A program made the translations under genes and the position numbers. The notes under the pieces are model-generated. The model was not told the DNA's origin, ran no database searches, and saw nothing but the letters and a program-made list of their open reading frames with translations. Source: Candidatus Multivoradales bacterium (lineage in GTDB: Bacteria; Acidobacteriota; Thermoanaerobaculia; Multivoradales; JAHEKO01). Taken from it: a stretch of DNA of 64,000 nucleotides. The stretch is from NCBI GenBank assembly GCA_965223855.1, contig CBDCXM010000009.1, positions 2,752,001-2,816,000 on the forward strand, read 5' to 3'. Below are positions 46,889 to 64,000 of the stretch, piece after piece (within the stretch, counting starts at the first letter, position 1; each line of letters opens with the position of its first letter).

Positions 46889-46949
46889 GCGCGAAGACGG
46901 ACCTGGGCGTCGCGCCCCGCAGTTCCGCGCGGGCCACCGCTACATTCAG

Positions 46950-47135
46950 CAAAAGGCGACCACCGGAGTGGCGGGCGAAAGTCCGCGAGAAGGGACTCGA
47001 GTACGACGGATTCGCCGACCGCAGCAGTCCTGACGGGCTCTTTTCGTCCGGGCCGACCTTGAGTTCCGAGCGGGACGGCCGCGACCTGCCTGAGTCAGCG
47101 GGCGGTAGCCGGCCGGGAGCCGGTTCTCGCCCTAC
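46950..47135 (+). ncRNA. candidate structured non-coding RNA (6S-like size)
   Basis: Closing stem ggcga..accgg / ccggt..tcgcc, GAAA-capped hairpin, 10-bp stem 46992-47001/47058-47067, TACATT just upstream; lies between convergent genes. Confidence 0.35.
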
Positions 47136-47219
47136 ACGGAGTCCTTCCGGCTCGCGCATCGGCGACTGGAGGAACCGGCGCGGGACGGAGCAGGCAGGGT
47201 AGCGCCTGATGGCAGGGCG

Positions 47220-49347: not shown

Positions 49348-50871
49348 TCAGCTCCGCGCCATCAGCAGCGTATGGAGGAGCTTGCGTTGCGCGGACAGGT
49401 ACTGGATGTCCCCGCTGGGATCGCCGCCGAAGGTCTGCTCGAGCGTCTCACCGGTGTTGGCGTCGGTCGCCTCGACCGCGATCGTGCCGTCCTCCCGATA
49501 CTGGGTGTAGACACCGATCGGGTAGTTGAGTCGCGGGTTGGGGAGGGGACCGACGTTGAGGATGCCGAGGCTCACCGCCTGCTTCGGATCGCCCGAGAAC
49601 TGCACGAAATCGAGCACCATGTTCCGCTGGTCGTGGCGGGTGGTGTAGTACGTCTTGCTGATCCGCGTCGGAAGCGGCATGTTCTTCTTGATCAGCGTGT
49701 TCACGGTGACCTCACCGGTCGTCGGGTCGATGGTGCGCACGCCGACGTTGTAGCCGGTGACCCCCTTGAGCTCCGGCGGCAGGGTGTAGGCGACCTTCTC
49801 GCCGGAGAGCTGCGCGGCGCGCAGCGAGGCGCCGTAGGCGACGGCTTTGCTCGGCTCGTGGTAGAGCACCTCCTGCTCGTCGCCGTCGAACTCCTTGCGG
49901 ACCCGATCCACGACCGCCGGCACCAGGGATGACCCGCCGACGAGAAGCGCGGTGTTCACGTCCTTCTTCGACAGCCCCGCCTCCTTGAGGCACTGCAGCA
50001 TGACGTCGATCGTCTTCTCGATGTAGCCCTTGATGGCACGAACGAACTCGTCCCGCTCGATCTCGATCTCGACCGCCTCCCGACCGAGGATGACGGTCTT
50101 GCGGACACGCGGTGTGGCCGGGCCGCAGAGCTCGATCTTGATCGCCTCCGAAGCGCGCCGCAGTTCCAGGAGCGAACGCGCCGTCGGCTCGAACTTCCGG
50201 CCGAGGGCGTTCTCGAACTGGGCGAGGATGATCTCGCCGATCCGCTCGTCGAACTCCTTGCCTCCGAGATCGGAGAGTCCTGCCTTCGAGAGGACGTAGA
50301 TACCGTTGCTGTCGAGACTCAAGGCGGTGGCGTCGAACGTGCCGCCGCCGAAGTCGTAGGCGAGGAGCACCTGATCGTGCGCTTCGTGAGTTACGCCGTA
50401 GTGAAGTGCCGCGGCGACGGGCTCCTCGATGAGGTCGAGCAGGGGAAGGTCGGCGAGCATCGCGGCGGCCGCGACCGCCTTGCGCTGCGGGTCGTTGTAG
50501 TGAGCGGGGACCGTGATCACGGCGCCGTCCACGCGGCGACCGCCGTCCGCCTCCGCGTCGAAGCGCAGCTTGTCGAGCAGCAGAGCGCCGATCCCCTCGG
50601 CGTGCCAGGCGGCACCCTTGTCGTCGAAGTAGATCGGCTCGCGCTCCCCGAAGTGCCGCTTGAAGAAGCGGATTGCGGGCAACTCCGGATGGTCCTCGAC
50701 CATGTCCTCGGCCGTGGCGCCTACGAAGGCACTGCCTCCGGTGACGACCGCGACCGACGGCGTATGAAACCGCTCCTCGTCCCACGAATCCGGGATCAGG
50801 GCGCTGGAACCGTCGGGCTGGATTCTCGAAGCGAGCGAGTAGCTCGTCCCCAGGTCGATGCCGATCTTCAT
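49348..50871 (-). CDS. specialised short Hsp70-family protein (not housekeeping DnaK)
   Basis: IGIDLGTSYS, ITVPAHY, EEPVAAAL, YDFGGGTFD, LVGGSS; 507 aa with divergent substrate-binding domain and no helical lid. Confidence 0.92.
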   Translation of the reverse strand: MKIGIDLGTSYSLASRIQPDGSSALIPDSWDEERFHTPSVAVVTGGSAFVGATAEDMVEDHPELPAIRFFKRHFGEREPIYFDDKGAAWHAEGIGALLLDKLRFDAEADGGRRVDGAVITVPAHYNDPQRKAVAAAAMLADLPLLDLIEEPVAAALHYGVTHEAHDQVLLAYDFGGGTFDATALSLDSNGIYVLSKAGLSDLGGKEFDERIGEIILAQFENALGRKFEPTARSLLELRRASEAIKIELCGPATPRVRKTVILGREAVEIEIERDEFVRAIKGYIEKTIDVMLQCLKEAGLSKKDVNTALLVGGSSLVPAVVDRVRKEFDGDEQEVLYHEPSKAVAYGASLRAAQLSGEKVAYTLPPELKGVTGYNVGVRTIDPTTGEVTVNTLIKKNMPLPTRISKTYYTTRHDQRNMVLDFVQFSGDPKQAVSLGILNVGPLPNPRLNYPIGVYTQYREDGTIAVEATDANTGETLEQTFGGDPSGDIQYLSAQRKLLHTLLMARS

Positions 50872-50904: not shown

Positions 50905-53037
50905 TCAGTCGGACGAACCGGGCTTGGGCTTGTTCCGGCTCCCCAACGGTGGGCGCTTGGAGGAGGCTCCGCCCGGCTTGAGGCTCGCCTTCTTGCGAAG
51001 CTTGGCGAAGGGATCCTCCGCCTTCTCCTTCTGGCCGGCGCCGGCTCCGGGCCGGGCCGCTCCGGGTCGGGCCGCTCCGGGTCGCTCGGCACCGGGCCGG
51101 GCAGCGCCGGGCCTCGCGGTGCCGGCCGCGGCAGCTCCAGGCCGGGCAGGGGTGGCGGCGCCACCGCTCTTCATCGCTTCGAGCTTCTTCAGCGCTTCAG
51201 CCGCCTCTTTGGGCATCCCCGGCTTGGCGGCTCCGGCGGCCGCTGCGGGCGGGATTCCGGCAGGCATGCCGGGGGCCGCCGGCGCGGCGCCGGCATCGGG
51301 AGTCATGATCGAGGTGAAGAAGACGATCAACTGCTGGCTCAGCGTTTCGAGGTCGGCGGCGGACGCCGAAGACTTCTTGACACCCTCCGTGACCTTCCGC
51401 TGGGAGGCGTCGAGCGTCTTCAGCTGCTTCTGCAGGATCTCCTTGTCGGCAGCCGCCTCCCGTGCCACCTGATCGGTGATCGACTTGACGGTCGTTTCGA
51501 CGAGGTCGAGGGCGTTGTTCTGCTGCTCGGAGAGGTGCCGGGAGATCGCCTGATCCCACCCCTTCTGTACCTCACCGAGAGAGCGCTTCAGATCGTTGCG
51601 CATGCCCTCGCGCGCCTTGTCGAGCTCCTTGGCTACGGTCTCTGCGCTCTGCTTTCTCGCTCCGTTGTACACGTTGACGAGACCGAAGGAGAGGAGCACG
51701 ACCCCCATCGGAATCGTGAACTCGCGGTAGGAGCGGATGAACGACAGACCGAAGGCGGAGAAGACCATGAAGAAGACCATCTGGTAGCGACGCGCGGCCA
51801 TGAAGTAATCCATCGGTCCGCGGCGCGTGATCTCACTCTGGTAGGGACGGTTGAATCCGACCGAGCGATCGACCAGGTTGGTGAGGTGACGCTCCGACAT
51901 GTGATCGAAGTGGAGCGTGACGGGCGGAGCTCCCTTCGACTCGATCAGATTCTCGAGATGGGTTTCGACCTCGCGGAACAACTCGCGCATCCGCAGCAGG
52001 TCTTCGCGGCCGACGTCGGTGAGCGATCGCGACGCTTCGTCCAGCAGGCCGTCCTGGATCTGCTTCGGGATCGTCAGGACGAAGATCTTCGGCTTCTTCT
52101 CGTAGTCGAAGTCCTCGAAAGCGTCGATCCGCGCGTCGAGCTTGTTCGTGAGAATCCCGTCGTGGGTCGCCACCAGCTCGCCCATGCGCGCGGCCGAGGT
52201 CTTGGTGAAGGTGTCGAACTTCTTCTGCAGATAGGAGCGGACGTCGCCCAGCACCTCCGTCGGGTTCCCTCCCGATCCGGATCCCTTGGCGGCCATCTGC
52301 TGTTCGAGCGAGGCTCGCTTCGAGCGCATTCCACGACCCTCGTTCTCGAGGGCCGCGGCGAACGCGCCGTGCATCGAGGCGAGGGCGCGAGATGCCGACC
52401 ACAGCCCCGCCATCCGACCCGCCTGCTGCAGCGGCGGCCTGCCGAAGCTCTCCTCCAGATTCTTGGTGTGGAGGGTCTCGATCTCGACGATCTTGCAGAC
52501 CCAGTCGTCGCGACTTCCCAGACCGGCGATCGCCTGCGCCCAGTCGCTCTCCTTCGGAGCGACCATCAGCGTGAGCGGCCGGTTCTTGACCTCGGCGATC
52601 AGGGCTTCCATCCACTCCTGGCCGGGCGATTCCTTGGAGCCCCGCGCCACGACGAGCACCGGAGCGACTCTTTCGCCGGCCTGGCGGCCGCGTCCCTGCA
52701 TCCTGCTGCGGAGCCTGACGACGGAGCAGTTGCGCTGAAGGTCGACAGGGCGCCGCTCCTCTTCCTTCTCGCCGGTCGCGAGGTCGACGATCGATTCCGC
52801 CTCCAGCCCCAGCCATTGGGCGAGGGTCCCCGTCCATTGAGGATGGAGATCGCCGAGCAGCAGCACCTCCACCTCGACGGTGCCGGACTCGACGAGCGCC
52901 AGCAGCTCGTCCGCGTTCTCACGCAGTTTGACGAGCGCCGGCGCCCTGCCGGCGGCGTCTACGGTCTCCGAGAATCCGCGAACCTGGTCGCGGACCGTTT
53001 CCGCGGCGTTTTCGGGGCTGACTCGAGCCAGGGCCAT
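50905..53037 (-). CDS. coiled-coil membrane protein, possibly a catalytically dead dynamin-like protein
   Basis: Alpha/beta N-region (VLLLGDLHPQWTGTLAQWLG), long helices, hydrophobic hairpin (MVFFMVFSAFGLSF...IPMGVVLLSFGLV), basic PGAAR-repeat tail. Confidence 0.75.
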   Translation of the reverse strand: MALARVSPENAAETVRDQVRGFSETVDAAGRAPALVKLRENADELLALVESGTVEVEVLLLGDLHPQWTGTLAQWLGLEAESIVDLATGEKEEERRPVDLQRNCSVVRLRSRMQGRGRQAGERVAPVLVVARGSKESPGQEWMEALIAEVKNRPLTLMVAPKESDWAQAIAGLGSRDDWVCKIVEIETLHTKNLEESFGRPPLQQAGRMAGLWSASRALASMHGAFAAALENEGRGMRSKRASLEQQMAAKGSGSGGNPTEVLGDVRSYLQKKFDTFTKTSAARMGELVATHDGILTNKLDARIDAFEDFDYEKKPKIFVLTIPKQIQDGLLDEASRSLTDVGREDLLRMRELFREVETHLENLIESKGAPPVTLHFDHMSERHLTNLVDRSVGFNRPYQSEITRRGPMDYFMAARRYQMVFFMVFSAFGLSFIRSYREFTIPMGVVLLSFGLVNVYNGARKQSAETVAKELDKAREGMRNDLKRSLGEVQKGWDQAISRHLSEQQNNALDLVETTVKSITDQVAREAAADKEILQKQLKTLDASQRKVTEGVKKSSASAADLETLSQQLIVFFTSIMTPDAGAAPAAPGMPAGIPPAAAAGAAKPGMPKEAAEALKKLEAMKSGGAATPARPGAAAAGTARPGAARPGAERPGAARPGAARPGAGAGQKEKAEDPFAKLRKKASLKPGGASSKRPPLGSRNKPKPGSSD

Positions 53038-53064
53038 GACGTGGGCGGCGCGGAGGCGCCGCGC

Positions 53065-53409
53065 TTAGTCGAACGCCTCGATCGCCTCTTTCTGGGTGTC
53101 GAAGGAGGGAATGATCTTGTGGATCAGCGCCATCTGGAGAACCTTGCCCACGTTCTCCTCGAAGTTGGCCAGGTGGACCTGCGCTCCCTTCTCCTTCGCG
53201 GCGACGTTGACCGCGACGAGCTCTCCTACGCCCGCCGAGTCCATCTTGGTGACCTTGCCCATGTCGACCACGAATTTGTCCTCTCCCTCCTTCAGCTCCT
53301 TGACGACGAGCTTCATGAGGTCGAAGTGATCCTGCCCAAGCACCATCTCGCCCTTGAGGCTGACGATGAGGACATCCTTCTGCTGACGTGTCTTGATCTC
53401 GAATGCCAT
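53065..53409 (-). CDS. STAS-domain anti-sigma-factor antagonist
   Basis: IVSLKGEM, VVDMGKVTKMDSAGVGELV (conserved phospho-Ser motif); own RBS GGAGAG. Confidence 0.9.
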   Translation of the reverse strand: MAFEIKTRQQKDVLIVSLKGEMVLGQDHFDLMKLVVKELKEGEDKFVVDMGKVTKMDSAGVGELVAVNVAAKEKGAQVHLANFEENVGKVLQMALIHKIIPSFDTQKEAIEAFD

Positions 53410-53559
53410 CGGACTCTCCCTCTCCGGCGTTTCCGCCGCGGTTCCTGCAGTCTCCTCTTTCGGCTGAGCGCCGAGTCTAGAGGACTTGGTCGTTGCCGAC
53501 AATGAATTGTTACCTCCGGCCCGATTACCCTTCGGCACACTGCCAGAGCCCTTCTTGTC

Positions 53560-53982
53560 TACGGAGCTATGGCTGCTGCGGTGGCGCTCGAAAGGATCGC
53601 CGGTCTCGGCGAGACGCCTCCTGTAGGGCGTCAGACGGCGGTCGATCGTCCTCACACTGAGGTCCAGAAGTTGGCGGGCGATCTTCGGTCGCACCTCGAC
53701 CCTGGTCCTCGCCCAGGTCACCAGCTCGGGCAACCGCTTCTTCAGTTTCGCGGCGGACGGGTAGCGGGCATGCCGCCACAGGGAGACCAGAAGCCGGGTG
53801 CCCTCGTTGTCGCTCTTCCGGGGCCGGCCGCGACGCCTCGGGAGCCTCGGTCGCGGGGGTTTTCGAAGCAGCCGGGTCGCGTACTTACGGTGAAACCCGG
53901 TCACCGCGCAAAATTCGTCCAGCAGCCGTGACTTCTCCGGACGCGTCGCTTTTCGATAGCGCGGCGCGATCGCCTTGACCAT
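53560..53982 (-). mobile_element. transposase N-terminal HTH remnant without catalytic domain, in frame with the STAS gene
   Basis: RYRKATRPEKSRLLDEFCAVTGFHRKYATRLL...LSVRTIDRRL resembles N-termini of integrase-core (ISNCY/IS481-like) transposases; no DDE domain or terminal inverted repeats seen. Confidence 0.6.
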
Positions 53983-54045
53983 CTCGAGTTGCCAGTGTTC
54001 CCTCAAAGGTCGGCCTGTCTGTTTCGGGCTCGGTAACAAACTATA

Positions 54046-54061
54046 TGGCGTGGATCCTGCG
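54046..54061 (+). promoter_or_regulatory. candidate sigma54 (-24/-12) promoter for the repeat-protein operon
   Basis: TGGCGT-GGATC-CTGC gives GG-N10-GC; a TTGACA also occurs at 54104. Confidence 0.3.
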
Positions 54062-54280
54062 AGCGCAAGCCCTCCGGGGTAAGAACGCTTTTGGCGTAAA
54101 CCGTTGACACGCCGAAACTCGGCTGATTCCCTGCCGATCATGCGAGGCGAGCTGGCACAGGGTCCTGGTCTCACCGGCGGTACGGGAGCCGGTGCTGTAA
54201 CGAATCGACCGGTGACGCGCCAGTCCGCTGTGCGAGTCCGCCTCGCGGGACGACCCATTTGCACAATCGAGGAGTAGGAG

Positions 54281-57200
54281 ATGATTGAACTCAGCGACGA
54301 ACAAAAACTACTTGCGCAGTCTCTGCTGCAGAAGAAGGCCGCCATGGAGGCGTACCGGGCAGCGGAGCTGCCGGCTTCCGCGATGCTCGAGGTCGGGCTG
54401 TCGATGGAGCAGGTGCGCGAGGCGGGCTACGAGCCGAACGAGCTCAAGGAAGAGCAGTTCGCGGCCGAGAAGCTGCATGGACTCTGGCCGGCGGCCGAAT
54501 TCCTGGACAGCGACTGGGAGCTGGCCGAACTGAAGGACGGCGGCTACGGCGTCATGGAGTTCAGGACGGGCGGCTGGGAGCCGAGCGTCCTGCTCGACGA
54601 CGGCGCATATACCGCCGAGGACTTCCACGGTGGTGGTGAAGCCGGCGAGGCCGAAGGCGAGGGCGAAGAAGGGGGCGACTCGGAGTCGATCTGGCCTGCG
54701 GAAGAGCTGAAGGCCGCCGAGATCGGTGCCGAGATTCTGCGGGAAGGTGGCTACACGGCGACCGAGCTGCGGGAAGGCGGCTACTTCGCCGGCGAGCTGC
54801 GCGAGGCCGAGTACACGGCCGCGGAGCTGCTCGAGGCCGAGTTCACCGCTGAAGAGATGAAGGACGGCGAGTGGGACGCTGCCGAGCTCAAGGACGGCGG
54901 CTGGGACGCCGAGGTGCTCTACGGCGTCTACAGCAACGAGGAGCTGCGCGAGGCGGGCTACGAGGCGGCGGCGATGAAGAGCGCCGGCGCCACCGCCAAC
55001 GAGATGCGCCAGGCCGGCTATAGCGGCGAGGACCTGCAGGAGGAGTACTCGCTGCCCGAGAAGCGCGAGGGCGGCTACGGCGCCGGCGAGCTGAGCGATC
55101 AGTACTCCGCCAAGGAGATGACCAAGGCGCAGTTCGGCGTCGAAGAGCTCTACCCGCACTACGACGTCGAGGACCTCAAGGAAGCGGGCGTCACGGCGAA
55201 GGAGTTGCTCGAGGAGGTCGAGGAGTGCTCGGTTTCGGACATCGCCGAGTTCTTCAGTGCGACCGAGCTCAAGGAGGCGGGGGCGACCGCCACAGAGCTC
55301 GAACAGGAGAACTTCAGTGCTGCCGATCTCAAGGAGGCGGGGTACCCGCTCTCCGAGCTGAAGGAGTGCTTCGACCTTCCCGACCTCAAGGAGGAGTTCA
55401 CTCTCCCCGAGCTCAAGGAGGAGTACGAACTCTCGGAGCTCAAGGAGGAGTTCGAGGTCTCGGAGCTCAAGGAGGAGTTCGAGCTCGGCGAGATGAAGGA
55501 GGAGTTCGGAGTCGCCGATCTCAAGGAGGCCTACTCGCTCGAGGAGCTCAAGCCCGAGTACGAGCTTTCGGAGCTCAAGGACGCCTACGACCTGGGCGAG
55601 CTGAAGGCTGAGTTCGAGCTTTCGGAGCTCAAGGAGGAGTTCGACCTCGGCGAGCTCAAGGAGGAGTTCTCGCTCGAGAAGCTGAAGGCTGAGTTCGACC
55701 TTCCGGAGCTCAAGGAGGAGTTCGATCTCGGAGAGCTCAAGCGAGAGTTCTCGCTCGAGGAGTTGAAGGAGGAGTTCGACCTCGGCGAGCTCAAGGAGGA
55801 GTTCTCCCTCGAAGAGCTGAAGGCTGAGTTCGAGCTTTCGGAGCTCAAGGAGGAGTTCGACCTCGGCGACCTCAAGCAGGAGTTCTCGCTCGAGGAGCTC
55901 AAGGCTGAGTTCGAGCTTTCGGAGCTCAAGGAAGAGTTCTCGCTCGAGGAGCTGAAGGCGGAGTTCGAGCTGCCGGAATTGAAGGAGGAGTTCGACCTCG
56001 GTGAGCTCAAGGAGGAGTTCTCGCTCGAGGAGCTCAAGGAGGAGTTCGAGCTTGCCGAGCTGAAGGAGGAGTTCTCCCTCGAGAAGCTGAAGGCTGAGTT
56101 CGAGCTCGAGGAGCTCAAAGAGGAGTTCGAGCTTTCCGACCTCAAGGAGGAGTTCTCGCTCGAGGAGCTGAAGGAGGAGTTCGATCTTCCGGATCTCAAG
56201 GAGGAGTTCACTCTCGAAGAGCTGAAGGCGGAGTTCGAGCTGACGGAACTCATGGAGGAGTTCGAACTCTCCGAGCTCAAGCGCGAGTTCTCGCTCGAGG
56301 AGCTCAAGGAAGAGTTCGAGCTTGCCGAGCTGAAGGAGGAGTTCTCGCTCGAGAAGCTGAAGGCGGAGTTCGAGCTCGAGGAGCTGAAGGAGGAGTTCGA
56401 CCTCGGTGAGTTGAAGGAGGAGTTCTCGCTCGAGGAGCTCAAGGAGGAGTTCGAGCTCTCGGAGCTGAAGGAAGAGTTCTCCCTGGAAGATCTCAAGGAG
56501 GAGTTCGAACTCGCCGAGTTGAAGGAGGAGTTCGAGCTTTCGGAGCTGAAGGAGGAGTTCGACCTCGGCGAGTTGAAGGAAGAGTTCGAGCTTCCCGAGC
56601 TCAAGGAGGAGTTCGATCTCGGCGAGCTCAAGGAGGAGTTCGAACTCGCCGAGCTGAAGGAGGAGTTCGAACTCGCGGAGCTCAAGGAAGAGTTCGAACT
56701 CGGTGAGCTGAAGGAGGAGTTCGAGCTTCCCGAGCTCAAGGAGGAGTTCGAACTCGGTGAGCTCAAGGAGGAGTTCGAGCTTTCCGAGCTGAAGGTAGAG
56801 TTCGAGCTTTCGGAGCTGAAGGAAGAGTTCGACCTCGGCGAACTGAAAGAGGAGTTCGAGCTTTCTGAGCTCAAGGAAGAGTTCGAGCTCGGTGAGCTGA
56901 AGGAAGAGTTCGAGCTCGACGAACTGAAGGAAGAGTTCGAGCTTTCGGAGCTCAAGGAGGAGTTCGAACTCGGCGAGCTGAAGGAGGAGTTCGAACTCGA
57001 CGAGCTGAAGGAGGAGTTCGAGCTTTCCGAGCTGAAGGAGGAGTTCGAGCTTTCGGAGCTCAAGGAAGAGTTCGAGCTCGAGGAGTTGAAGGAAGAGTTC
57101 GAGCTCGGCGAGCTGAAGGAGGAGTTCGAGCTCGAGGAGCTCAAGGAAGAGTTCGAGCTTTCGGAGCTCAAGGAGGAGTTCGAACTTTCGGAGCTCAAGG

Positions 57201-60200
57201 AGGAGTTCGAGCTCGAGGAGTTGAAGGAAGAGTTCGAACTCGGTGAGCTCAAGGAGGAGTTCGAGCTCGAGGAACTCAAGGAGGAGTTCGAGCTTTCCGA
57301 GTTGAAGGAAGAGTTCGAGCTTTCGGAGCTCAAGGAAGAGTTCGAACTCGAGGAGTTGAAGGAAGAGTTCGAGCTCGGTGAGCTCAAGGAGGAGTTCGAG
57401 CTCGACGAGCTGAAAGAGGAGTTCGAGCTTTCGGAGCTCAAGGAAGAGTTCGAGCTCGGCGAGCTGAAGGAAGAGTTCGAACTCGACGAGTTGAAGGAGG
57501 AGTTCGAGCTCGGCGAGCTGAAGGAAGAGTTCGAGCTCTCGGAGCTCAAGGAGGAGTTCGACCTCGGCGAGCTGAAAGAGGAGTTCGAGCTTTCGGAGCT
57601 GAAGGAGGAATTCGAGCTCTCCGAGCTGAAGGAGGAATTCGAGCTTTCGGAGCTCAAGGAGGAGTTCGAGCTCTCGGAGCTCAAGGAGGAGTTCGAGATC
57701 CCCGAGCTGAAGGAGGAGTTCGAGCTCTCCGAGATGAAGGAGGAGTTCGAGCTCGAAGAGCTCAAGGATCACTACGAGCTCGAGGAGCTGGCCGAGGAGT
57801 ACACCTGCGCCGAGCTCAAGGACGTCGACTTCACGGCGCAGGAGCTCTACGGGGTCGACTTCACCATGGGCGACCTCAGGGAGGCGGGCTTCACCGCCGG
57901 CGAGCTCAAGGAGGAGGGCTTCGAAGCGGGGCAGCTCCTCGAGGGTGAGTACGAGGCGCAGGATTGTCACGACGCCGGGTACGACGCCGCCGAGATGCTC
58001 GCCGGTGAGTGGCTCACCGAGGTACTGCACGGTGTCTACTCCGCTGCCGAGATGCTCGAGGGCGACTGGCCGACGGATCTGATGCACGGCATCTACACCG
58101 CGGCCGAGATGCTGGAGGCGAACTGGCCGACCGAGCTGATGCACGGCATCTTCGAGGCCGCCGAGCTTCTAGAAGCCAACTGGCCGACGGAGCTGGTGCA
58201 CGGCATCTACCAGGCCGCCGAGCTTCTGGAGGCGAACTGGCCGACGGAGCTGGTGCACGGGATCTTCGATGCCGCCGAGCTCCTGGAGGCGAACTGGCCG
58301 ACGGACCTGCTGCACGGGATCTTCCCGGCCGCCGAGCTTCTCGACGCGAACTGGCCGACGGAGCTGATGCACGGCATCTACCAGGCCGCCGAGCTTCTGG
58401 AGGCGAACTGGCCGACGGAGCTGCTGCACGGGATCTTCCCGGCCGCCGAGCTTCTGGAGGCGAACTGGCCGACGGAACTGGTGCACGGGATCTTCGAGGC
58501 CGCCGAGCTTCTGGAGGCGAACTGGCCGACCGAGCTGGTGCACGGGATCTTCCCGGCCGCCGAGCTTCTGGAGGCGAGCTGGCCGACGGACCTGATGCAC
58601 GGGATCTTCGACGCCGCCGAGATGTTGGAGGCGAACTGGCCGACCGATCTGATGCACGGGATCTTCCCGGCCGCCGAGCTTCTGGAAGCGAGCTGGCCTA
58701 CGGATCTGATGCACGGGATCTTCGACGCCGCCGAGATGCTGGAGGCGAACTGGCCGACCGATCTGATGCACGGGATCTTCCCCGCGACGGAGCTGTTGGA
58801 CGCCAACTGGCCGACGGAGCTGATGCACGGGATCTTCGACGCTGCCGAGATGCTGGAGGCGAACTGGCCGACCGATCTGATGCACGGGATCTTCCCGGCT
58901 GCCGAGCTTCTGGAGGCGAACTGGCCGACGGATCTGATGCACGGGATCTTCAACGCCGCCGAGATGCTGGAGGCGAACTGGCCGACCGATCTGATGCACG
59001 GGATCTTCCCGGCCGCCGAGCTTCTGGAGGCCAACTGGCCCACGGAGCTGGTGCACGGCATCTTCGATGCGACCGAGCTACTGGAGGCCAACTGGCCGAC
59101 CAACCTGTTGCACGGGATCTTCCCGGCCAAGGAGCTGCTCGACGCGGCCTGGCCGACGGAGCTGGTACACGGCATCTACGAGGCTGCCGAGCTTCTGGAG
59201 GCCGACTGGCCGACCGAGCTGGTGCACGGCATCTTCGATGCCGCCGAGCTTCACGCCGGCGGCTGGCTGGCCGAGCGCCTGCACGGCATCTTCGGCGCCG
59301 ACGAGGTCAAGGACGCCTACCAGCCCGACGAGGTCGAAGGTGTCTACGCGATGGAGGAGTTCTTCGGGGACGAGGTCTCCGAGGCGATCTCGAGCGTCGG
59401 TGACTTCACGTCGATGATCACGAGCGGCATCGACCGCCTCAACGAGATGCTCGCCGCCGCGCAGTCGGTGAAGGGCGACATCGTTGCGGCGACCGACGAG
59501 GTCAAGTCGCAGTTCGACGTTCTCGACCAGTCGATCAACGAGGCCGAGCAGCAGATCGCTCAGCAGGCCGAGGAGATCGCCGCCAAGTTCGAGGAGTTCG
59601 AGGCCAAGCTCACCGCCTTCGACGGCGGGGTGTCGGAAGGCACCGAGGGGCTGGAGAACGAGCTCAACGACGTCGAGGTGATGTCCAACGAGATGCTCTC
59701 GACGATGCAGACCCAGTACGAGGCCTGCAAGAGCGACCTCGAAGCGCTCGCCGATCAGGTGACGGAGTACCAGAGCACCACGACGAGCGAGGTTCAGGCG
59801 CGTCAGGAGCAGATCGAAGCGTTCCAGCAGGAGATCGAGTCGGTCGAAAGCGACTTCCGCGACAAGAAGGACGAGCTCGTCGACCACTACAACGGGATGC
59901 AGGACGGTCTGGTCAACAGCCTGTCGAACGTCCAGAGCGAGTTCGGCGGCCTGGTGTCTCAGACCTCCTCGAGCCTCACGGCTCTGACCGGAATGCTCGA
60001 CGACACGAGCTCGGAGAAGCTGGGCAACATGGCGACTCTGATGCTCGAGACGCTGGTGGGCGCCCTCGGCGATTCCGCCGGCGCCCTCGGCGACGCGCTC
60101 TCGTTCCTCGAGGGTGTCGGTGCGGCGGGCCAGGAGCTGATGGACGGCGCCGCCGGCGACGTCATCGGCCAGATGGAAGGCGTCGTCGACGTCATCGACC

Positions 60201-60244
60201 AGATCAAACCCGTACTCGACATGGTCGAGTCGATGCTCGGCTGA
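54281..60244 (+). CDS. giant acidic repeat protein (1987 aa) with C-terminal helical domain
   Basis: RBS GGAG; 10-aa (YTAAELREAG-like), 9-aa (FELSELKEE) and 19-aa (AAELLEANWPTELVHGIFP) repeat blocks; C-terminal ~290-aa amphipathic helical region; no signal peptide. Confidence 0.92.
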   Translation: MIELSDEQKLLAQSLLQKKAAMEAYRAAELPASAMLEVGLSMEQVREAGYEPNELKEEQFAAEKLHGLWPAAEFLDSDWELAELKDGGYGVMEFRTGGWEPSVLLDDGAYTAEDFHGGGEAGEAEGEGEEGGDSESIWPAEELKAAEIGAEILREGGYTATELREGGYFAGELREAEYTAAELLEAEFTAEEMKDGEWDAAELKDGGWDAEVLYGVYSNEELREAGYEAAAMKSAGATANEMRQAGYSGEDLQEEYSLPEKREGGYGAGELSDQYSAKEMTKAQFGVEELYPHYDVEDLKEAGVTAKELLEEVEECSVSDIAEFFSATELKEAGATATELEQENFSAADLKEAGYPLSELKECFDLPDLKEEFTLPELKEEYELSELKEEFEVSELKEEFELGEMKEEFGVADLKEAYSLEELKPEYELSELKDAYDLGELKAEFELSELKEEFDLGELKEEFSLEKLKAEFDLPELKEEFDLGELKREFSLEELKEEFDLGELKEEFSLEELKAEFELSELKEEFDLGDLKQEFSLEELKAEFELSELKEEFSLEELKAEFELPELKEEFDLGELKEEFSLEELKEEFELAELKEEFSLEKLKAEFELEELKEEFELSDLKEEFSLEELKEEFDLPDLKEEFTLEELKAEFELTELMEEFELSELKREFSLEELKEEFELAELKEEFSLEKLKAEFELEELKEEFDLGELKEEFSLEELKEEFELSELKEEFSLEDLKEEFELAELKEEFELSELKEEFDLGELKEEFELPELKEEFDLGELKEEFELAELKEEFELAELKEEFELGELKEEFELPELKEEFELGELKEEFELSELKVEFELSELKEEFDLGELKEEFELSELKEEFELGELKEEFELDELKEEFELSELKEEFELGELKEEFELDELKEEFELSELKEEFELSELKEEFELEELKEEFELGELKEEFELEELKEEFELSELKEEFELSELKEEFELEELKEEFELGELKEEFELEELKEEFELSELKEEFELSELKEEFELEELKEEFELGELKEEFELDELKEEFELSELKEEFELGELKEEFELDELKEEFELGELKEEFELSELKEEFDLGELKEEFELSELKEEFELSELKEEFELSELKEEFELSELKEEFEIPELKEEFELSEMKEEFELEELKDHYELEELAEEYTCAELKDVDFTAQELYGVDFTMGDLREAGFTAGELKEEGFEAGQLLEGEYEAQDCHDAGYDAAEMLAGEWLTEVLHGVYSAAEMLEGDWPTDLMHGIYTAAEMLEANWPTELMHGIFEAAELLEANWPTELVHGIYQAAELLEANWPTELVHGIFDAAELLEANWPTDLLHGIFPAAELLDANWPTELMHGIYQAAELLEANWPTELLHGIFPAAELLEANWPTELVHGIFEAAELLEANWPTELVHGIFPAAELLEASWPTDLMHGIFDAAEMLEANWPTDLMHGIFPAAELLEASWPTDLMHGIFDAAEMLEANWPTDLMHGIFPATELLDANWPTELMHGIFDAAEMLEANWPTDLMHGIFPAAELLEANWPTDLMHGIFNAAEMLEANWPTDLMHGIFPAAELLEANWPTELVHGIFDATELLEANWPTNLLHGIFPAKELLDAAWPTELVHGIYEAAELLEADWPTELVHGIFDAAELHAGGWLAERLHGIFGADEVKDAYQPDEVEGVYAMEEFFGDEVSEAISSVGDFTSMITSGIDRLNEMLAAAQSVKGDIVAATDEVKSQFDVLDQSINEAEQQIAQQAEEIAAKFEEFEAKLTAFDGGVSEGTEGLENELNDVEVMSNEMLSTMQTQYEACKSDLEALADQVTEYQSTTTSEVQARQEQIEAFQQEIESVESDFRDKKDELVDHYNGMQDGLVNSLSNVQSEFGGLVSQTSSSLTALTGMLDDTSSEKLGNMATLMLETLVGALGDSAGALGDALSFLEGVGAAGQELMDGAAGDVIGQMEGVVDVIDQIKPVLDMVESMLG
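55343..57799 (+). repeat. coding 27-bp tandem repeat, about 90 copies
   Basis: Unit ttcgagctttcggagctcaaggaggag with frequent synonymous variation. Confidence 0.95.
57987..59297 (+). repeat. coding 57-bp tandem repeat, 23 copies
   Basis: Unit gccgccgagcttctggaggcgaactggccgacggagctggtgcacgggatcttcccg; copies counted from the translation. Confidence 0.95.
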
Positions 60245-60277
60245 TCGCCACTTCATCGGGACTAAGGAGAAAGAACA

Positions 60278-61279
60278 ATGTCAGAAGTACTGGATTTCGG
60301 AACGAGTTTCGACGAAGCGGCGCAGACGGTCAGCAACCTGATCTCGGACATGGCCGACCATGCCGCCACGGTGGCCGACCACAACTCGGTGATCGAAGCG
60401 GCCGAGAGTTCACTGCAGCAGGCGAAGGATCAGGCCTCTCAGATGCTCCAGGGCCTCGCCGGCGACGTCGGCAGCCAGAGCGAGGAGACCAACTCCCTGA
60501 GAGACGAGTTCGCCGGCACTGCCGATGAGCTCAAGGCGGCGGGCGACGCCGGCATGGAGGCCGTCGACGGCTTCAAGGAGGCGGTCGCCGACACCCACGA
60601 CGAGCTGTCCGACGCGGTCACCGAGACGGTGGACGAGGCGAACCAGCTCTACGAAGAGGTGCAGAGCGCAGTCTCGGACGCTGTGTCGATGACCGGCGAA
60701 ACCGCCAACCAGATGCAGGGCACGGCCGATCTGACGATGCAGACGCTCGGCGAAGTCGAGTCCTCGGTCACCGAGCTGACCGGTCGCATGGCCGACCTCG
60801 GGCAGGACACGGTCAGCAAGGCTCTCGACCTCGGCAGCAAGATCACCGACGACGTGCAGTCGCGCTTCGACGGCATGTTCGGAGATGTCACCGGCGCCCT
60901 GACGTCGGACTTCTTCGACCAGGCGGTCGCCGGCTTCGACGGCCTGTCGAGCAACCTTACCAACCTCTACGACAACTTCGAGGACGTGGTCAACGGTCTC
61001 GGCGACAACCTGATGGGACGGATGGAAGAGGTGTTCATGAACACCATCGAGCACGCCCAGGATCAGGCGGCGTCGAAGCTGGAGGAGGAGTTCAAGGAAC
61101 TCGTCAGCGACGCCGTCGAGTTTCTCGTCGCCGAGGTGGCCGAGAACCTCACCATGGCCACCGTCGGCTCGGCGACCACCGCGGCCCTCGGTCCGGCGGT
61201 GCCCGTCATCGTCGCGGCGAAGGCCGTCGTCACTCCCATCAAGACCGCCCTCGAGCTGCTCCGCAGCATGGGCCTCTGA
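60278..61279 (+). CDS. acidic alpha-helical protein with hydrophobic C-terminus
   Basis: RBS AAGGAG; 333 aa, Asp/Glu/Ala-rich with heptad-like periodicity; ends AALGPAVPVIVAAKAVVTPIKTALELLRSMGL. Confidence 0.88.
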   Translation: MSEVLDFGTSFDEAAQTVSNLISDMADHAATVADHNSVIEAAESSLQQAKDQASQMLQGLAGDVGSQSEETNSLRDEFAGTADELKAAGDAGMEAVDGFKEAVADTHDELSDAVTETVDEANQLYEEVQSAVSDAVSMTGETANQMQGTADLTMQTLGEVESSVTELTGRMADLGQDTVSKALDLGSKITDDVQSRFDGMFGDVTGALTSDFFDQAVAGFDGLSSNLTNLYDNFEDVVNGLGDNLMGRMEEVFMNTIEHAQDQAASKLEEEFKELVSDAVEFLVAEVAENLTMATVGSATTAALGPAVPVIVAAKAVVTPIKTALELLRSMGL

Positions 61280-61303
61280 TCCGATCGCGAAAGGAACTAG
61301 ATC

Positions 61304-62230
61304 ATGCGCGATGTCATTGCACAGATTTTCGAAGCAGCCCCCAGCGCGAGTCCGCTGCTGGAGCAGGTAAACCAGGAATCAGAAGCCCTGATGGGGATCG
61401 TCGGCGAGCTGCAGGAGAACATCGGCAGTAAGCAGACGGCCCTGGCGGACGTCGCTTCCCGTCGCAACGAGAAGATGAGCGAGCTCCAGACCAAGGCGTC
61501 GGAGCAGCAGTCCCGTCTCGAGAGCGAGGTCGCGGACGTCGACGCCAAGGTCGGTGAGCTCAAGCGGGGTCTCGACGAGATCAAGGAGGGTGTCACCAGC
61601 GCCCTCGAAGCCGCCCAGCAGCAGATGGACGGCTTCCGCGGGCAGGTCGACGCCGGCCGCGAGCTCGTGTCGGGCGCCAACGAGGCGGCGCAGGCCGCCA
61701 TCTCCACGGTCCACGACCAGATCCAGGCGGGGCGCGAGTCGCTCCATCGGGCAACCGATTACGCCAACGAACAGATCGACGGCTTCCAGTCGAAGATCGA
61801 CGAGACGATGGAGTTCACCGAGAACATGGCGACCAACCTGATGGACCGCATGGAAGAAGGCATGCGGGACACGGGCGCCAAGGTCGAAGAGATGACCGGC
61901 ATGTCGTTCGAGGAGATGCACTCCGTCTTCACGAGCGGCATGGAGATGGTCCAGGGCAACGTCATCGAGAACGGCGTCAACATGGTGCTCGACGACCTCC
62001 AGGGCCGGATCGAGCAGCAGGCGAACCAGCTGATCGACCAGTTGGTCGACGAGCTCGTCGGTGCGCTCGGCAACGTTCGCGAGAGCGTTTTCGGCAACGC
62101 CGAGGACGCCGGCCTCGAGCGCAAGGCGACCGAGGCGGTTCTCGACGCACTCGAAACGGTGCTGGACCCGATGTTCAGCGCCATCGATCACATCAAGGGC
62201 ATGGCCTCGATGGTCGGTATCGACATCTGA
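61304..62230 (+). CDS. acidic alpha-helical / coiled-coil protein
   Basis: RBS AAGGA; 308 aa; same composition as its neighbours. Confidence 0.88.
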   Translation: MRDVIAQIFEAAPSASPLLEQVNQESEALMGIVGELQENIGSKQTALADVASRRNEKMSELQTKASEQQSRLESEVADVDAKVGELKRGLDEIKEGVTSALEAAQQQMDGFRGQVDAGRELVSGANEAAQAAISTVHDQIQAGRESLHRATDYANEQIDGFQSKIDETMEFTENMATNLMDRMEEGMRDTGAKVEEMTGMSFEEMHSVFTSGMEMVQGNVIENGVNMVLDDLQGRIEQQANQLIDQLVDELVGALGNVRESVFGNAEDAGLERKATEAVLDALETVLDPMFSAIDHIKGMASMVGIDI

Positions 62231-62271
62231 GCCCTGACAGACAGAGACCAACGAGGACACGGAGATAGAAC

Positions 62272-63174
62272 ATGAGCATTCTTGATGTCGTACAGCAGGC
62301 CATCAGCCAGGTCGAGAGCGATCTGGCCCAGCAGGCCGAGAATCTGGTCGGTGAGCTGCAGGACACCGGCAGCCAGGTGGAAGCCGCGGGCGGCGAAGTC
62401 GACTCACAGTGGCAGGACCTGGAGACCAAGGCTGAGTCGATGTTCGGCGCCGCCGACGATGCGATGAGTCAGATCGAGCAGGCGGGCGACGCGATGTCGA
62501 CGCGCGCCAGCGAGATCCGCTCGAACGTCGACTCGGCGATGGAGCAGGGCTCGAGTCTCTTCGAGTCGTGCCGCGGCGTCGTGGAGACGATGGACCAGGG
62601 GGTGCAGGAACTGATCCCCGACTGCGACAGCGTCATGGCGATGGTCGACGAGACCGTCAACACGCTGGCCAGTGAGATCGAGAGCCTCGACCAGGCGCTC
62701 GAGTCCACACGCGTGATCACCGACAACCACCTGCACGCCCCCTTCCAGGGACTGGTGGACGAGGTGAAGACCGAGATCTTCAACCGCGCCAGCGAGCTCG
62801 GTGGGTACGTCGACAGCGACTTCCTCACCACCGCGGCCGACGAGATCAGCCAGTTCAAGAGCCACGTCGACGAGGTGGTCACCAACGCCACCGACAAGCT
62901 CGAGGAGGTGCGCAGCACCGCCGAGAGCGAAGGTTCCAACGCGATGGAGCAGATGGGTTCGATGTTCGGCGAGCAGTTCGGCTCGCTCATCGGCACCGTC
63001 GAGACGATCGCCAACTTCATGACGCAGGTCGGCGGCATGATGGAGACGGCCGGTACGATGATCGGCACGACCACCTCGGTGATGAGTGCCGGAGCCGGTA
63101 CCACCGCGATCGGCGCCAAGGCTGCGATCGGGATCATCGAGGACATCGTCGAGATCTTCGAGAGCGTCACCTGA
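62272..63174 (+). CDS. acidic alpha-helical protein with Gly/Ala/Thr-rich hydrophobic C-terminus
   Basis: RBS GGAG; 300 aa; ends AGTMIGTTTSVMSAGAGTTAIGAKAAIGIIEDIVEIFESVT. Confidence 0.88.
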   Translation: MSILDVVQQAISQVESDLAQQAENLVGELQDTGSQVEAAGGEVDSQWQDLETKAESMFGAADDAMSQIEQAGDAMSTRASEIRSNVDSAMEQGSSLFESCRGVVETMDQGVQELIPDCDSVMAMVDETVNTLASEIESLDQALESTRVITDNHLHAPFQGLVDEVKTEIFNRASELGGYVDSDFLTTAADEISQFKSHVDEVVTNATDKLEEVRSTAESEGSNAMEQMGSMFGEQFGSLIGTVETIANFMTQVGGMMETAGTMIGTTTSVMSAGAGTTAIGAKAAIGIIEDIVEIFESVT

Positions 63175-63312
63175 TCCGGTCGGTCCTTCCCATGAGGTGA
63201 GTCTCCGGGCGCGAGCTTCAGGTCGGTCCAGCCGACCGGGGGTTCGCGCCCGGCTTTGTCTCGACCACGACCGCGCGAGCGACCGAGAAGAGGAAGCGAG
63301 GAGAGGGGGAGC

Positions 63313-63970
63313 ATGAGCATTCTGGACGAGGTCGGAAAGGCGATCAGCCACGTCGAGGGCGACCTCGCCGAGCAGGCGATGGCGGCGAAGGACGAAAGGG
63401 TCGACGCGGTCCTGAAGATGACCAACGCGATCTTCGAGATCGACACGCAGTGGGAGGAGGTAAAGACGACGGGCGAGTCGATGTTCGGCGCCGCGGACCG
63501 TGCGATGGGCTGGATCGAGCAGGTGGGAGGCAAACTGTCCAGCCATGCGAACGAGGTCCGTTCGGGCATCGACGGCGCCATGGAGCAGGGCTCGAGCCTC
63601 TTCGAGTCGTGCCGCGGCGTCGTCGAGGCGCTCGACCACGGTGTGCAGGAGCTGATCCCCGATTGCGAAGGGGTGATGGGCAAGGTCGGCGAGATCGACT
63701 ACCTGAGCGATCGACTCGAGAAGACGCGCGCCTACACCGACAACCACCTTCACACGCCCTTCCAGGGAGTGGTGGACGACCAACGACTTCCTCACCACCG
63801 CGGCCGAGGAGAGCCAGTTCAAGAGCCACGTCGAGAACGTCGGCGCCGGTAACGAGAACCGGTCGCCTGACGAACGCGCCCGAATCGGTCTGTTCGGGGC
63901 GAAGGCCGCTATCGGCATCATCGAAGACATCGTCGAGATCTTCGAAAGTGCGTCTGATCGGCGCCGGTAA
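63313..63970 (+). pseudogene. deleted/frameshifted paralog of 62272..63174
   Basis: Shares MSILD, ESMFGAAD, AMEQGSSLFESCRGVVE, VQELIPDC, TDNHLH.PFQG; frame shifts near 63781 (DFLTTAA, SQFKSHV) and ends GAKAAIGIIEDIVEIFES. Confidence 0.75.
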
Positions 63971-64000
63971 CGGAACCGGTCGCCTCGCGCCCAAGTCTGT

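Follow-up and report, generated by a model that had tools for sequence, protein, structure and literature searches.

Introduction

The decapeptide repeats of DotG/IcmE, a protein of the Legionella Dot/Icm system, provide the closest described counterpart to the protein investigated in this study. In the literature on this system, the repeat motif is given as [KR]-x-A-G-[FY]-[STND]-x-x-x-[LI] and the repeats are placed in the periplasm, where they are proposed to form a 'collar' (10.1101/2023.03.22.533729, PMC6761968). The same literature describes repeat numbers and protein lengths that differ among Legionella species, with the repeats preceding a conserved C-terminal domain (PMC6761968, 10.1101/2023.03.22.533729), maps from cryo-electron microscopy that leave the repeat region without assigned density even in the latest work, and an AlphaFold model of DotG that is not a β-helix of the pentapeptide type. 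Here we describe a gene from a 64,000-nucleotide stretch of the genome of Candidatus Multivoradales bacterium (phylum Acidobacteriota; GenBank assembly GCA_965223855.1, contig CBDCXM010000009.1, positions 2,752,001 to 2,816,000; termed the window), whose 1987-residue product combines decapeptides of this type with two further repeat registers and a helical C-terminal domain.

We identify this product, with high confidence, as a giant ultra-acidic fusion protein with an arm of decapeptide units and their derivatives, and we propose, with a confidence that stands midway between belief and disbelief, that it serves in the cytoplasm as a polyanionic spacer arm mounted on a helical scaffold. A second reference are pentapeptide repeat proteins such as MfpA, Qnr, AlbG and HetL, which are right-handed quadrilateral β-helices, some of which mimic DNA.

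Results

A giant acidic protein built from three repeat registers

The gene starts with an ATG codon, extends over 1987 codons and is a real gene encoding a protein of 227.1 kDa with a pI of 4.05 and a net charge of -467 (E 506 residues or 25.5%, D 99, K 122, R 16). Acidic residues account for 30% of the protein, which contains 5 cysteines in total. The gene and its parts are organized as follows:

54281..60244, forward strand: whole gene of the 1987-residue ultra-acidic repeat protein (P0001), defined by its open reading frame and composition
54281..54688, forward strand: residues 1-136, N-terminal lead, whose units are degenerate and include an LHG/W variant at residue 60
54689..55369, forward strand: residues 137-363, 10-mers of the DotG type ([FYW]-[ST]-A-x-E-L-[KR]-E-[AG]-G), some of them degenerate, matched by PF25296 and by IcmE in the PDB
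55370..57799, forward strand: residues 364-1173, 90 in-phase 9-mers of the FELSELKEE type with a net charge per residue of -0.32
57800..57979, forward strand: residues 1174-1233, six transitional 10-mers constituting the most pentapeptide-repeat-like part, matched by PF25296, Pentapeptide_4 and HetL
57980..59347, forward strand: residues 1234-1689, 24 19-mers (F-x-A-A-E-L-L-E-A-N + W-P-T-[ED]-L-x-H-G-I)
59378..60241, forward strand: residues 1700-1987, all-helical C-terminal domain ('subunit A1') ending in IDQIKPVLDMV

Residues 137-363 harbor 13 10-mers as defined by a regular expression, which are of the kind Y-T-A-x-E-L-R-E-G-G, and about 20 10-mers are found in the entire protein. In the subsequent 810-residue block, 9-mers with the consensus F-[EDS]-L-x-E-L-K-E-E follow each other in unbroken register. 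The final array contains 23 units with a tryptophan, all 22 spacings between them being 19 residues (24 units when including the degenerate last one), and carries a 38-residue super-repeat. At the DNA level, Tandem Repeats Finder describes the arrays as 27 nucleotides in 90.5 copies (score 2313), 57 nucleotides in 23.2 copies and 114 nucleotides in 10.6 copies. Three quarters of the repeat arm consist of the 9- and 19-residue registers. These observations agree with several claims of the original prediction, which had described an ultra-acidic protein in 10-, 9- and 19-residue registers with about 90 9-mers (there are exactly 90), 19-mers consisting of a 10-mer followed by a 9-mer, and an LHG/W variant close to the N-terminus, which we located in the sequence FAAEKLHGLWPAAEF. 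Its further statement that all blocks fit a single template has to be restricted: the pattern aromatic-[STPDE]-x-x-E-[LM] occurs 115 times, with an average of 3.5 and at most 9 occurrences in 300 composition-preserving shuffles, but none of the 23 tryptophan-containing halves (W-P-T-E-L-x-H-G-I) matches it as written. In these halves, the hydrophobic position comes one residue earlier, and they align better with the Y-T-A-E-E-I-H-G-V 9-mers of a relative from the same family (G005, see below).

A position-wise consensus is common to the 10-, 9- and 19-residue blocks, and relatives of the decapeptide family also mix 9- and 10-mers. The view that a single short unit underlies all registers, already contained in the original prediction, is thus supported at the level of sequence. 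The 9-mer would correspond to a 10-mer devoid of its closing glycine, and the 19-mer to a 10-mer joined to a 9-mer of the 'HG' type, both being lineage-specific derivatives. Between 9-mer units, identity amounts to 85% at codon positions 1 and 2 and to 66% at position 3, and the equivalent values for the 19-mers are 90% and 74%. The closer similarity at the first two positions indicates that the repeats are kept by selection on the peptide sequence and that they form part of a gene rather than a DNA-level oddity. The 90 9-mers comprise 32 distinct peptides, and 75 of the 90 units are distinct in their DNA. The arrays grew by duplication of multi-unit blocks, as shown by a periodicity at lag 5 among the 9-mers and by the better-scoring 114-nucleotide period of the 19-mers.

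Within the 9-mer array (55370-57799), Glu-Leu is encoded as GAG-CTC, which places two self-complementary GAGCTC hexamers into each 27-nucleotide unit. In the same region, a terminator scan lists nine sites with a hairpin and a T-run on the minus strand, the GC content falls to 0.57 and the GC skew rises to 0.28. The mRNA of this array could be heavily structured.

Upstream, a GGAG-rich Shine-Dalgarno-like stretch directly precedes the gene, whose GC content at third codon positions (0.89) is similar to that of adjoining genes. A sigma-70-like promoter was not found in 53000-64000, and an Rfam search of the upstream region 53000-54400 returned no match. Neither a signal peptide nor a transmembrane (TM)-like segment was found in the protein, whose N-terminus is polar and where the 19-residue Kyte-Doolittle mean peaks at 1.21. 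In the absence of an export signal, a cytoplasmic location appears most likely. An open reading frame of 426 codons (53065-54345, reverse strand) overlaps the start of the gene and is probably over-called since just its last ~110 residues, starting from an internal methionine, constitute a STAS (anti-sigma antagonist) domain. If so, almost 0.9 kb without an obvious gene remain upstream of 54281.

The repeat unit belongs to the decapeptide family of DotG/IcmE

In a comparison with Pfam, the whole protein matches PF25296 ('Decapeptide repeat region') with 287.1 bits (cut-off 45, E 2.7e-87) in 10 stretches. Residues 1-345 contribute 188.1 bits in 7 stretches and residues 1161-1240 score 70.4 bits. 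The protein is also matched by the PDB sequence of Legionella IcmE/DotG (E 1.2e-59) and by the NCBIfam model NF033900 (DotG/IcmE), the latter with 244.6 bits against a cut-off of 750 and aligned only through the repeats. When scanned alone, the 19-mer block scores 77.3 bits with PF25296, its sole passing stretch being the last degenerate units (387-439 of 450 scanned), and the 9-mers (residues 400-1160) match neither PF25296 at E ≤ 1 nor any other family model. A match of the 19-mers to DUF982 (107.8 bits) was rejected together with others, as it extends over just ~18 profile positions that are repeated many times, and its score thus reflects summation. The 10-mers are therefore members of a catalogued family, and the unit itself is not new. 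The original prediction had counted a match to a well-characterized repeat family as evidence against its proposal. As the unit matches PF25296, the repeat of DotG/IcmE, this objection applies in part, to a family that is catalogued yet without structural characterization. No paper on PF25296 appeared among the matches listed in a literature search on the decapeptide repeat. New in this protein are the 810-residue FELSELKEE block, the 19-residue register and the fusion to a helical C-terminal domain of ~290 residues.

A word-based search with the 9-mer block, conducted in 5.8 billion clusters and restricted to shorter proteins, found 4 proteins. Two of them (P0198 and P0201) are PF25296 proteins with glycine-less 9-mers interspersed among canonical 10-mers. 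In the metagenome protein P0200, about ten Y-T-L-T-E-L-K-x-x 9-mers precede an RCC1 β-propeller, so that 9-residue variants of the decapeptide also serve as N-terminal arms on unrelated domains. In light of these three proteins, the change of register is a recurrent variation of the PF25296 family, and the shared consensus and the mixed arrays of relatives argue for a kinship of the 9-mers with that family. What is special in the present case is the scale of the 9-mer array, with its 90 copies, and its charge.

The resemblance to DotG/IcmE comprises the same 10-residue unit, the location of the repeats N-terminal to a conserved assembly domain (a predicted role in our case), a repeat number that varies between relatives and a repeat fold that lacks a solved structure in both proteins. 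With respect to repeat number, 11 tryptophan-containing units are seen in the genome G002 of the same genus, where the array is cut by a contig end, compared to 23 in the source genome (G000). The giant protein differs from DotG by the absence of a TM anchor and of a TrbI/VirB10 domain (there is no TrbI match at Pfam E ≤ 1), by its net charge, its two derived registers and the fusion of its arm to an unrelated helical domain. Moreover, no Dot/Icm or type IV secretion system (T4SS) genes were detected among the proteins scanned, which cover positions 35-63998 of the window and the following 16 kb, and PF25296 was found nowhere else in a search of the whole genome, which therefore contains no DotG.

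The C-terminal domain defines a family of helical proteins

The C-terminal domain (C-domain) retrieved 63 matches at E ≤ 1e-3 in a phmmer search of 1.84 billion representatives, the best one (E 1.2e-61) covering residues 3-287 of 288. Full-length relatives contain ~270-300 residues, in one case 387, and the remainder are shorter fragments. Members of this family align end to end with the C-domain at 14-42% identity and all contain the terminal motif I-E-x-I-K-P-V-L-D-x-V, while their source names are generic coiled-coil mislabels. The C-domain shares the end-to-end alignment and the terminal motif with this unnamed family of ~295-residue helical proteins, whose members occur as tandem paralogs. 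It differs in its context, as the relatives were found as stand-alone proteins and the domain was observed joined to a repeat arm solely in this genus and family. A search of 5.8 billion protein clusters for the C-domain in proteins of 1092-3478 residues returned none, and thus no long fused form. Of the C-terminal assembly domain that had been postulated originally, the separate, conserved and all-helical domain is supported and its stand-alone, co-ordered tandem relatives fit a putative role in assembly.

Searches for more distant relatives of the C-domain returned candidates that we set aside. Matches of the family profile in the PDB (ApoA-IV with E 7.4e-11, a designed three-helix bundle and signalling domains of methyl-accepting chemotaxis proteins) were regarded as compositional, reflecting long helices and coiled coils, and a marginal match to Baculo_PEP_C (41.4 bits against 38) was not taken as homology. 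Among 94 Pfam families at E ≤ 1, nearly all are below their cut-off. Scores of 0.83 and 0.81 relate the C-domain to clusters of mostly cyanobacterial hypothetical proteins of ~300 residues in the ESM Atlas, which, being below 0.9, are leads only.

Orthologues and array length

Orthologues with the same C-domain were identified in G002 (67% identity) and in an unpublished genome of the same family (G005, 34% identity), in both cases followed by an orthologue of the first downstream gene, d1. The repeats of G005 comprise 10-mers and the 9-mers mentioned above. With the 'KEE' 9-mer seen only in G000 and G002, the 'HG' 9-mer is the older of the two. This ordering and the same-family orthologue both depend on the unpublished G005.

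The extent of the arrays in the living organism deserves separate consideration, as the original prediction had pointed to the possibility that raw reads might expose their length as an assembly artefact. In short-read (Logan) contigs of 4 runs, which belong to one study with at most 2 samples and may include the source sample, the flanks and many unique pieces within the arrays are covered with 0-1 differences. These matches inside the arrays stand against the finding that contigs break in both of them, with none spanning either array and listed contig joints with sides of just 21 nucleotides, that both orthologues end at contig ends within the repeats and that G002 contains fewer tryptophan units. 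In favor of the assembled length, most units can be told apart by their DNA (75 of 90 9-mers and all 21 tested 19-mers), the longest exact repeated words are short (56 nucleotides in the 9-mer and 61 nucleotides in the 19-mer array) and the gene resides in a 3.2-Mb contig of a 9-contig assembly. No RNA run is listed among those that contain the sequence. We consider an artefact of array length, which would leave the gene itself intact and mean a much shorter or longer true protein, as very improbable and the array length as assembled as plausible.

The gene heads a module of helical paralogs

Downstream of the giant gene, a row of genes encodes weakly similar helical proteins without signal peptides, which are separated by 25-82 nucleotides, and two further genes of interest are located on the opposite strand upstream:

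60278..61279, forward strand: paralog d1, 333 residues, helical with a hydrophobic C-terminal stretch, counterpart of a2 in G311
61304..62230, forward strand: paralog d2, 308 residues, counterpart of a3 in G311
62272..63174, forward strand: paralog d3, 300 residues, counterpart of a4 in G311
63256..63852, forward strand: d4, 198 residues, sharing 56% identity with residues 1-166 of d3
50905..53037, reverse strand: 710-residue protein with two moderately hydrophobic segments and a basic tail rich in Pro, Gly and Ala, which co-occurs with the paralog module
49348..50871, reverse strand: 507-residue Hsp70-like ATPase, 57% identical to its equivalent in the G311 cluster

G311, a genome that represents a different family within the phylum, contains four tandem genes, each with a single counterpart among the C-domain, d1, d2 and d3 and all arranged in the corresponding order (BLASTP E-values of 3e-12 for a1 and the C-domain, 1e-22 for a2 and d1, 3e-19 for a3 and d2 and 2e-10 for a4 and d3). 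They are divergent from an Hsp70-like gene and from a gene for a 950-residue protein that matches the 710-residue neighbor (26% identity, E 5e-58 to 4e-57). The gene neighborhood is thus conserved, and the C-domain is subunit A1 of a co-ordered paralogous set, in which d1, d2 and d3 follow as A2-A4. Evidence for the paralogy comes from profiles and from the counterparts in G311, with weak pairwise similarity within the genome. Among 301 sampled genomes of the phylum, G000 and G311 alone gave full-length matches to the helical family, where the G000 rows for d1-d3 match by construction since these proteins were part of the query alignment, and 57 other genomes with E ≤ 1e-5 show partial, coiled-coil-like matches. 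The 710-residue two-TM protein was found in the same two of the 301 genomes. The prediction of a complex of the C-domain with d1, d2 and d3 yielded a score of 0.00 compared to a mark of 0.32, to which we assign no weight either way.

The two-TM protein ends in ~130 basic residues of low complexity, a Pro/Gly/Ala tail that contains short repeats of the ARPGA type and whose charge is opposite to that of the divergently encoded acidic giant. The alignment with the G311 homologue of this protein is confined to the first ~570 residues, and a sequence relative of the protein was not found in the PDB. The family of the Hsp70-like protein is large, as 2286 of the 7999 proteins scored reach E ≤ 1e-30, and its closest named members stem from metagenome-assembled genomes of Acidobacteriota (56-63% identity). 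Matches of the helical proteins to ZorA, JetC, LmuB, LeoA and tape-measure proteins in PADLOC and PHROGs were dismissed, since they are weak and of a kind that coiled-coil composition typically produces.

A second trio of tandem genes for proteins of ~300 residues (306, 316 and 299) is located elsewhere in the genome (G000:C9:917778-920551, corresponding to L033 5778-8551, reverse strand). It includes an open frame of 304 codons that matches the helical-family profile (E 1.5e-16) and adjoins a DUF900 hydrolase and an FG-GAP protein, without genes for an Hsp70-like or a two-TM protein.

Farther upstream, at 45368-49310, a Sel1-repeat/caspase protein on the forward strand stands back to back with a Ser/Thr kinase-caspase fusion on the reverse strand, whose kinase half matches PD-T4-6 models of PADLOC (E 3e-76). 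Adjoining the Hsp70-like gene, the two look like a conflict or signalling pair. The region after d4 (L010 4108-12363) encodes an Lcl_C-like protein, a 177-residue protein of unknown type, a 638-residue multi-FHA protein and an autotransporter with Calx-beta domains, and a PP2C phosphatase with FHA and GAF domains is found downstream of d4 on the opposite strand (L010). The downstream FHA and PP2C genes and the upstream kinase suggest Ser/Thr phospho-signalling around the cluster.

Fold of the repeat arm

We used AlphaFold2 (AF2) in two settings to approach the fold of the arm. In a first run on residues 1041-1987 as single sequence, the mean predicted local distance difference test score (pLDDT) was 39.8, with all repeats between 30 and 37. 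The 9-mers are modeled as coil without secondary structure (pLDDT ~31), the 19-mers with about one short helix per unit and no strands (pLDDT ~34) and the C-domain as three long helices (pLDDT 50-66). A second run on residues 1519-1987 employed an alignment (A3) that combined the G002 orthologue and 35 relatives of the C-domain with 15 windows shifted along the same array. In this case, strands run throughout the 19-mers and form a β-solenoid (pLDDT 75-86), and a single helix of 245 residues is predicted (pLDDT ~90), the predicted template modelling score of the run being 0.37. AF2 is known to over-predict β-solenoids and, as the self-shifted copies add artificial covariation, this model may be an artefact. 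In a structural alignment with VIA-align, its residues 1-150 superimpose on the 19-residue Ca-bound β-helix of MpAFP (3p4g_A, the top match) with a Z-score of 12.1 and a root-mean-square deviation of 2.4 for 149 aligned positions, and on the pentapeptide repeat proteins AlbG, EfsQnr and MfpA with Z-scores of 10.9-12.0, where values of ~12 are in a range that the tool calls common for repeats. A Foldseek search of the PDB gave no match at E ≤ 0.001.

The relation to pentapeptide repeat proteins is ambiguous. The 19-mer resembles them by a large hydrophobic residue at each fifth position that follows a small one at a distance of two, by its acidic surface and by the described alignment of its possibly artefactual model. 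Its residues can be assigned to four faces of pentapeptide type, where F/Y1, L/M6, W11 and L15 are the large and G18, A4, A9 and T13 the small positions (22-24 of 24 units being small at each), an arrangement that would leave L7, M/V/L16 and I19 on the exposed surface. In contrast, the protein remains below the cut-offs of PF13599 (Pentapeptide_4; 16.5 bits against 38 for the whole protein and 16.4 bits for the transitional 10-mers) and of the HetL model (42.5 bits against 260), PF00805 has no match in the entire genome including the giant gene, and the outward positions of the units are strong helix formers. The comparison with RTX proteins and with region IV of MpAFP from Marinomonas (PDB 3p4g) reveals likewise common features, namely the periods of 9 and 19 residues in an acidic giant repeat protein and the top rank of 3p4g_A in the structural alignment. 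In this case, the differences concern the absence of GGxGxD or xGTGND motifs, a sequence identity of 5% and the absence of type I secretion system (T1SS) genes near the giant gene. GGxGxD does not occur in the translation, and no RTX family is found among Pfam matches at E ≤ 1.

The sequence of the unit itself offers a further clue. We take [FY]-[STDN]-x-x-E-[LM]...G to combine a hydrophobic staple, an N-cap, a capping box and a Schellman glycine, and, read as a series of such helix-capping motifs, it favors short helices. Harmonics of the hydrophobic moment were not used as evidence for a fold, since they merely restate the repeat periods. In a joint estimate, we consider a stack of short capped helices to be as probable as both alternatives combined, with a β-solenoid and conditional disorder having equal shares in what is left. 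If the 9-mer block is considered by itself, disorder ranks first among them. The helix-turn solenoid of the original prediction is thus compatible with the logic of helix capping, but the AF2 runs disagree (with either pLDDT values of 30-37 or a β-solenoid) and the 9-mers lie on the disordered side of a charge-hydropathy plot. The AlphaFold and Foldseek analysis that had been suggested as a check has delivered conflicting models and no match in the PDB.

Discussion

In our study, we have characterized a giant protein that unites a decapeptide-derived arm with a conserved helical domain. From its features, we propose a function in which docking of the C-domain would insert the protein into a helical scaffold, hetero-oligomeric in nature and situated at the membrane or close to it, from which the N-terminal arm of ~1690 residues, composed of decapeptide units and their two derivatives, would project as a highly charged spacer or bristle of variable length. 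In the cytoplasm, such an arm would hold off other polyanions and surfaces, and it would have to condense a large number of counter-cations. A parallel would be found in DotG, where the same type of repeat constitutes a variable-length connector before a conserved C-terminal assembly domain. Several observations weigh against this proposal. The DotG analogy could equally argue for export since the repeats of DotG are periplasmic. The similarity of the C-domain to its presumed paralogs within the genome is low (best E 4e-6 to d3, 0.002 to d2 and none to d1), the module was seen complete in just two genomes, searches of it in Pfam, NCBIfam and PDB sequences returned nothing that would assign a function, and its two-TM protein shows a weak match to the dynamin-like LeoBC in PADLOC (E 3e-5). 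Moreover, the two AF2 predictions of the fold, low-confidence coil and helix in one and a β-solenoid in the other, are in conflict, all blocks except for the 19-mers, the linker and the C-domain are on the disordered side of the charge-hydropathy plot, and the full length of the array rests on one assembly.

Alternative explanations differ primarily in the structure that is assigned to the arm. If conditionally disordered, the 9-mers and perhaps also the 10-mers would be unfolded at low ionic strength, turning the arm into an entropic brush or a high-capacity low-affinity buffer for Mg, Ca or K, which folds only when bound to cations as in RTX nonapeptides. This proposal, which overlaps with the spacer arm, would account for the far position of the 9-mer block on the disordered side (with a charged fraction of 0.55 at the listed net charge per residue, the 19-mers being on the folded side), for its coil-like AF2 model and for the lack of a family model or a look-alike in the ESM Atlas (best score 0.77, equivalent to chance level), and the 9-residue period and the Ca-dependent β-helix as top match of the 19-mer model are reminiscent of RTX-type repeats. 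However, the AF2 confidence for a single sequence is a weak measure of disorder, RTX motifs and families are missing, as is a cation-responsive RNA element in the Rfam search of 53000-54400, and the conservation of F1, L3, L6 and K7 in 85-88 of 90 units despite a 34% divergence at third codon positions exceeds what a brush or buffer would need. As overall explanation, disorder is unlikely, albeit the strongest contender. We regard as less probable a polyanionic β-solenoid rod of ~40 nm with about twice the linear charge density of DNA, acting as mimic of DNA or polyphosphate or as cation-condensing rod, where the 10-mer would supply two pentapeptide-type faces and the 19-mer one coil with a single four-residue face. 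It draws on the strands of the second AF2 run and their structural alignment to MpAFP, AlbG, EfsQnr and MfpA, on the agreement of the 19-mer with every fifth-position rule of pentapeptide repeats, on weak HetL and Pentapeptide_4 scores and on precomputed Pfam labels of the database that assign both PF13599 and PF25296 to the same relatives. Conversely, the alignment underlying that model consists mostly of shifted copies of its own array, the single-sequence run produced short helices instead of strands, Z-scores of ~12 are common for repeats and Foldseek found no PDB match, the pentapeptide families are either not matched or far below their cut-offs, three further large hydrophobics per unit would be exposed and the 9-mers violate the i/i-2 rule. 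The AlphaFold model of DotG in the Dot/Icm papers is not a β-helix, and, with respect to DNA mimicry, no DNA-related genes were detected nearby among the scanned proteins.

A different location is assumed if the giant is exported as acidic surface or periplasm-spanning protein with the conserved extreme C-terminus of its family as secretion signal, following the example of the DotG and CagY spacers or of T1SS substrates. The periplasmic repeats of DotG, the terminal motif shared by all members of the C-domain family, an acidic, repeat-rich and almost cysteine-free sequence and the autotransporter gene ~5 kb downstream of d4 are all consistent with export. This view is difficult to reconcile with a protein devoid of signal peptide and TM segment, with scanned proteins that include neither ABC transporter, membrane fusion protein or TolC genes nor those of a T4SS or another secretion system, with the absence of DotG from the genome and with conserved partners that are an Hsp70-like ATPase of cytoplasmic type and helical proteins without signal peptides, and we thus consider it highly unlikely. 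A more far-reaching reading is conceivable, where the cation-bound arm would become a continuous solenoid rod of tens of nm with about -1.2 charges per angstrom, roughly twice the value of B-DNA, a number obtained by arithmetic that assumes 18 residues per 4.8 angstrom coil. Such a rod could act as giant mimic of DNA or polyphosphate or as cation-condensing ruler on a membrane-associated helical scaffold that is serviced by the Hsp70-like ATPase. We consider this reading improbable.

Collectively, our results draw attention to a rare and uncharacterized module of six genes, in which four co-ordered helical paralogs are accompanied by an Hsp70-like ATPase and a two-TM protein. With its 227 kDa and a net charge of -467, the polyanion that heads the paralogs is an extreme case, which raises the question of how a cell makes and uses such a protein. 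For the decapeptide family, a natural series of 10-, 9- and 19-residue registers under selection constrains the possible folds of the DotG repeat and supplies well-behaved, near-identical fragments for circular dichroism, nuclear magnetic resonance or crystallography. If our assignment is true, this series would offer the handle that structural biology lacks for solving the fold of the DotG repeat.

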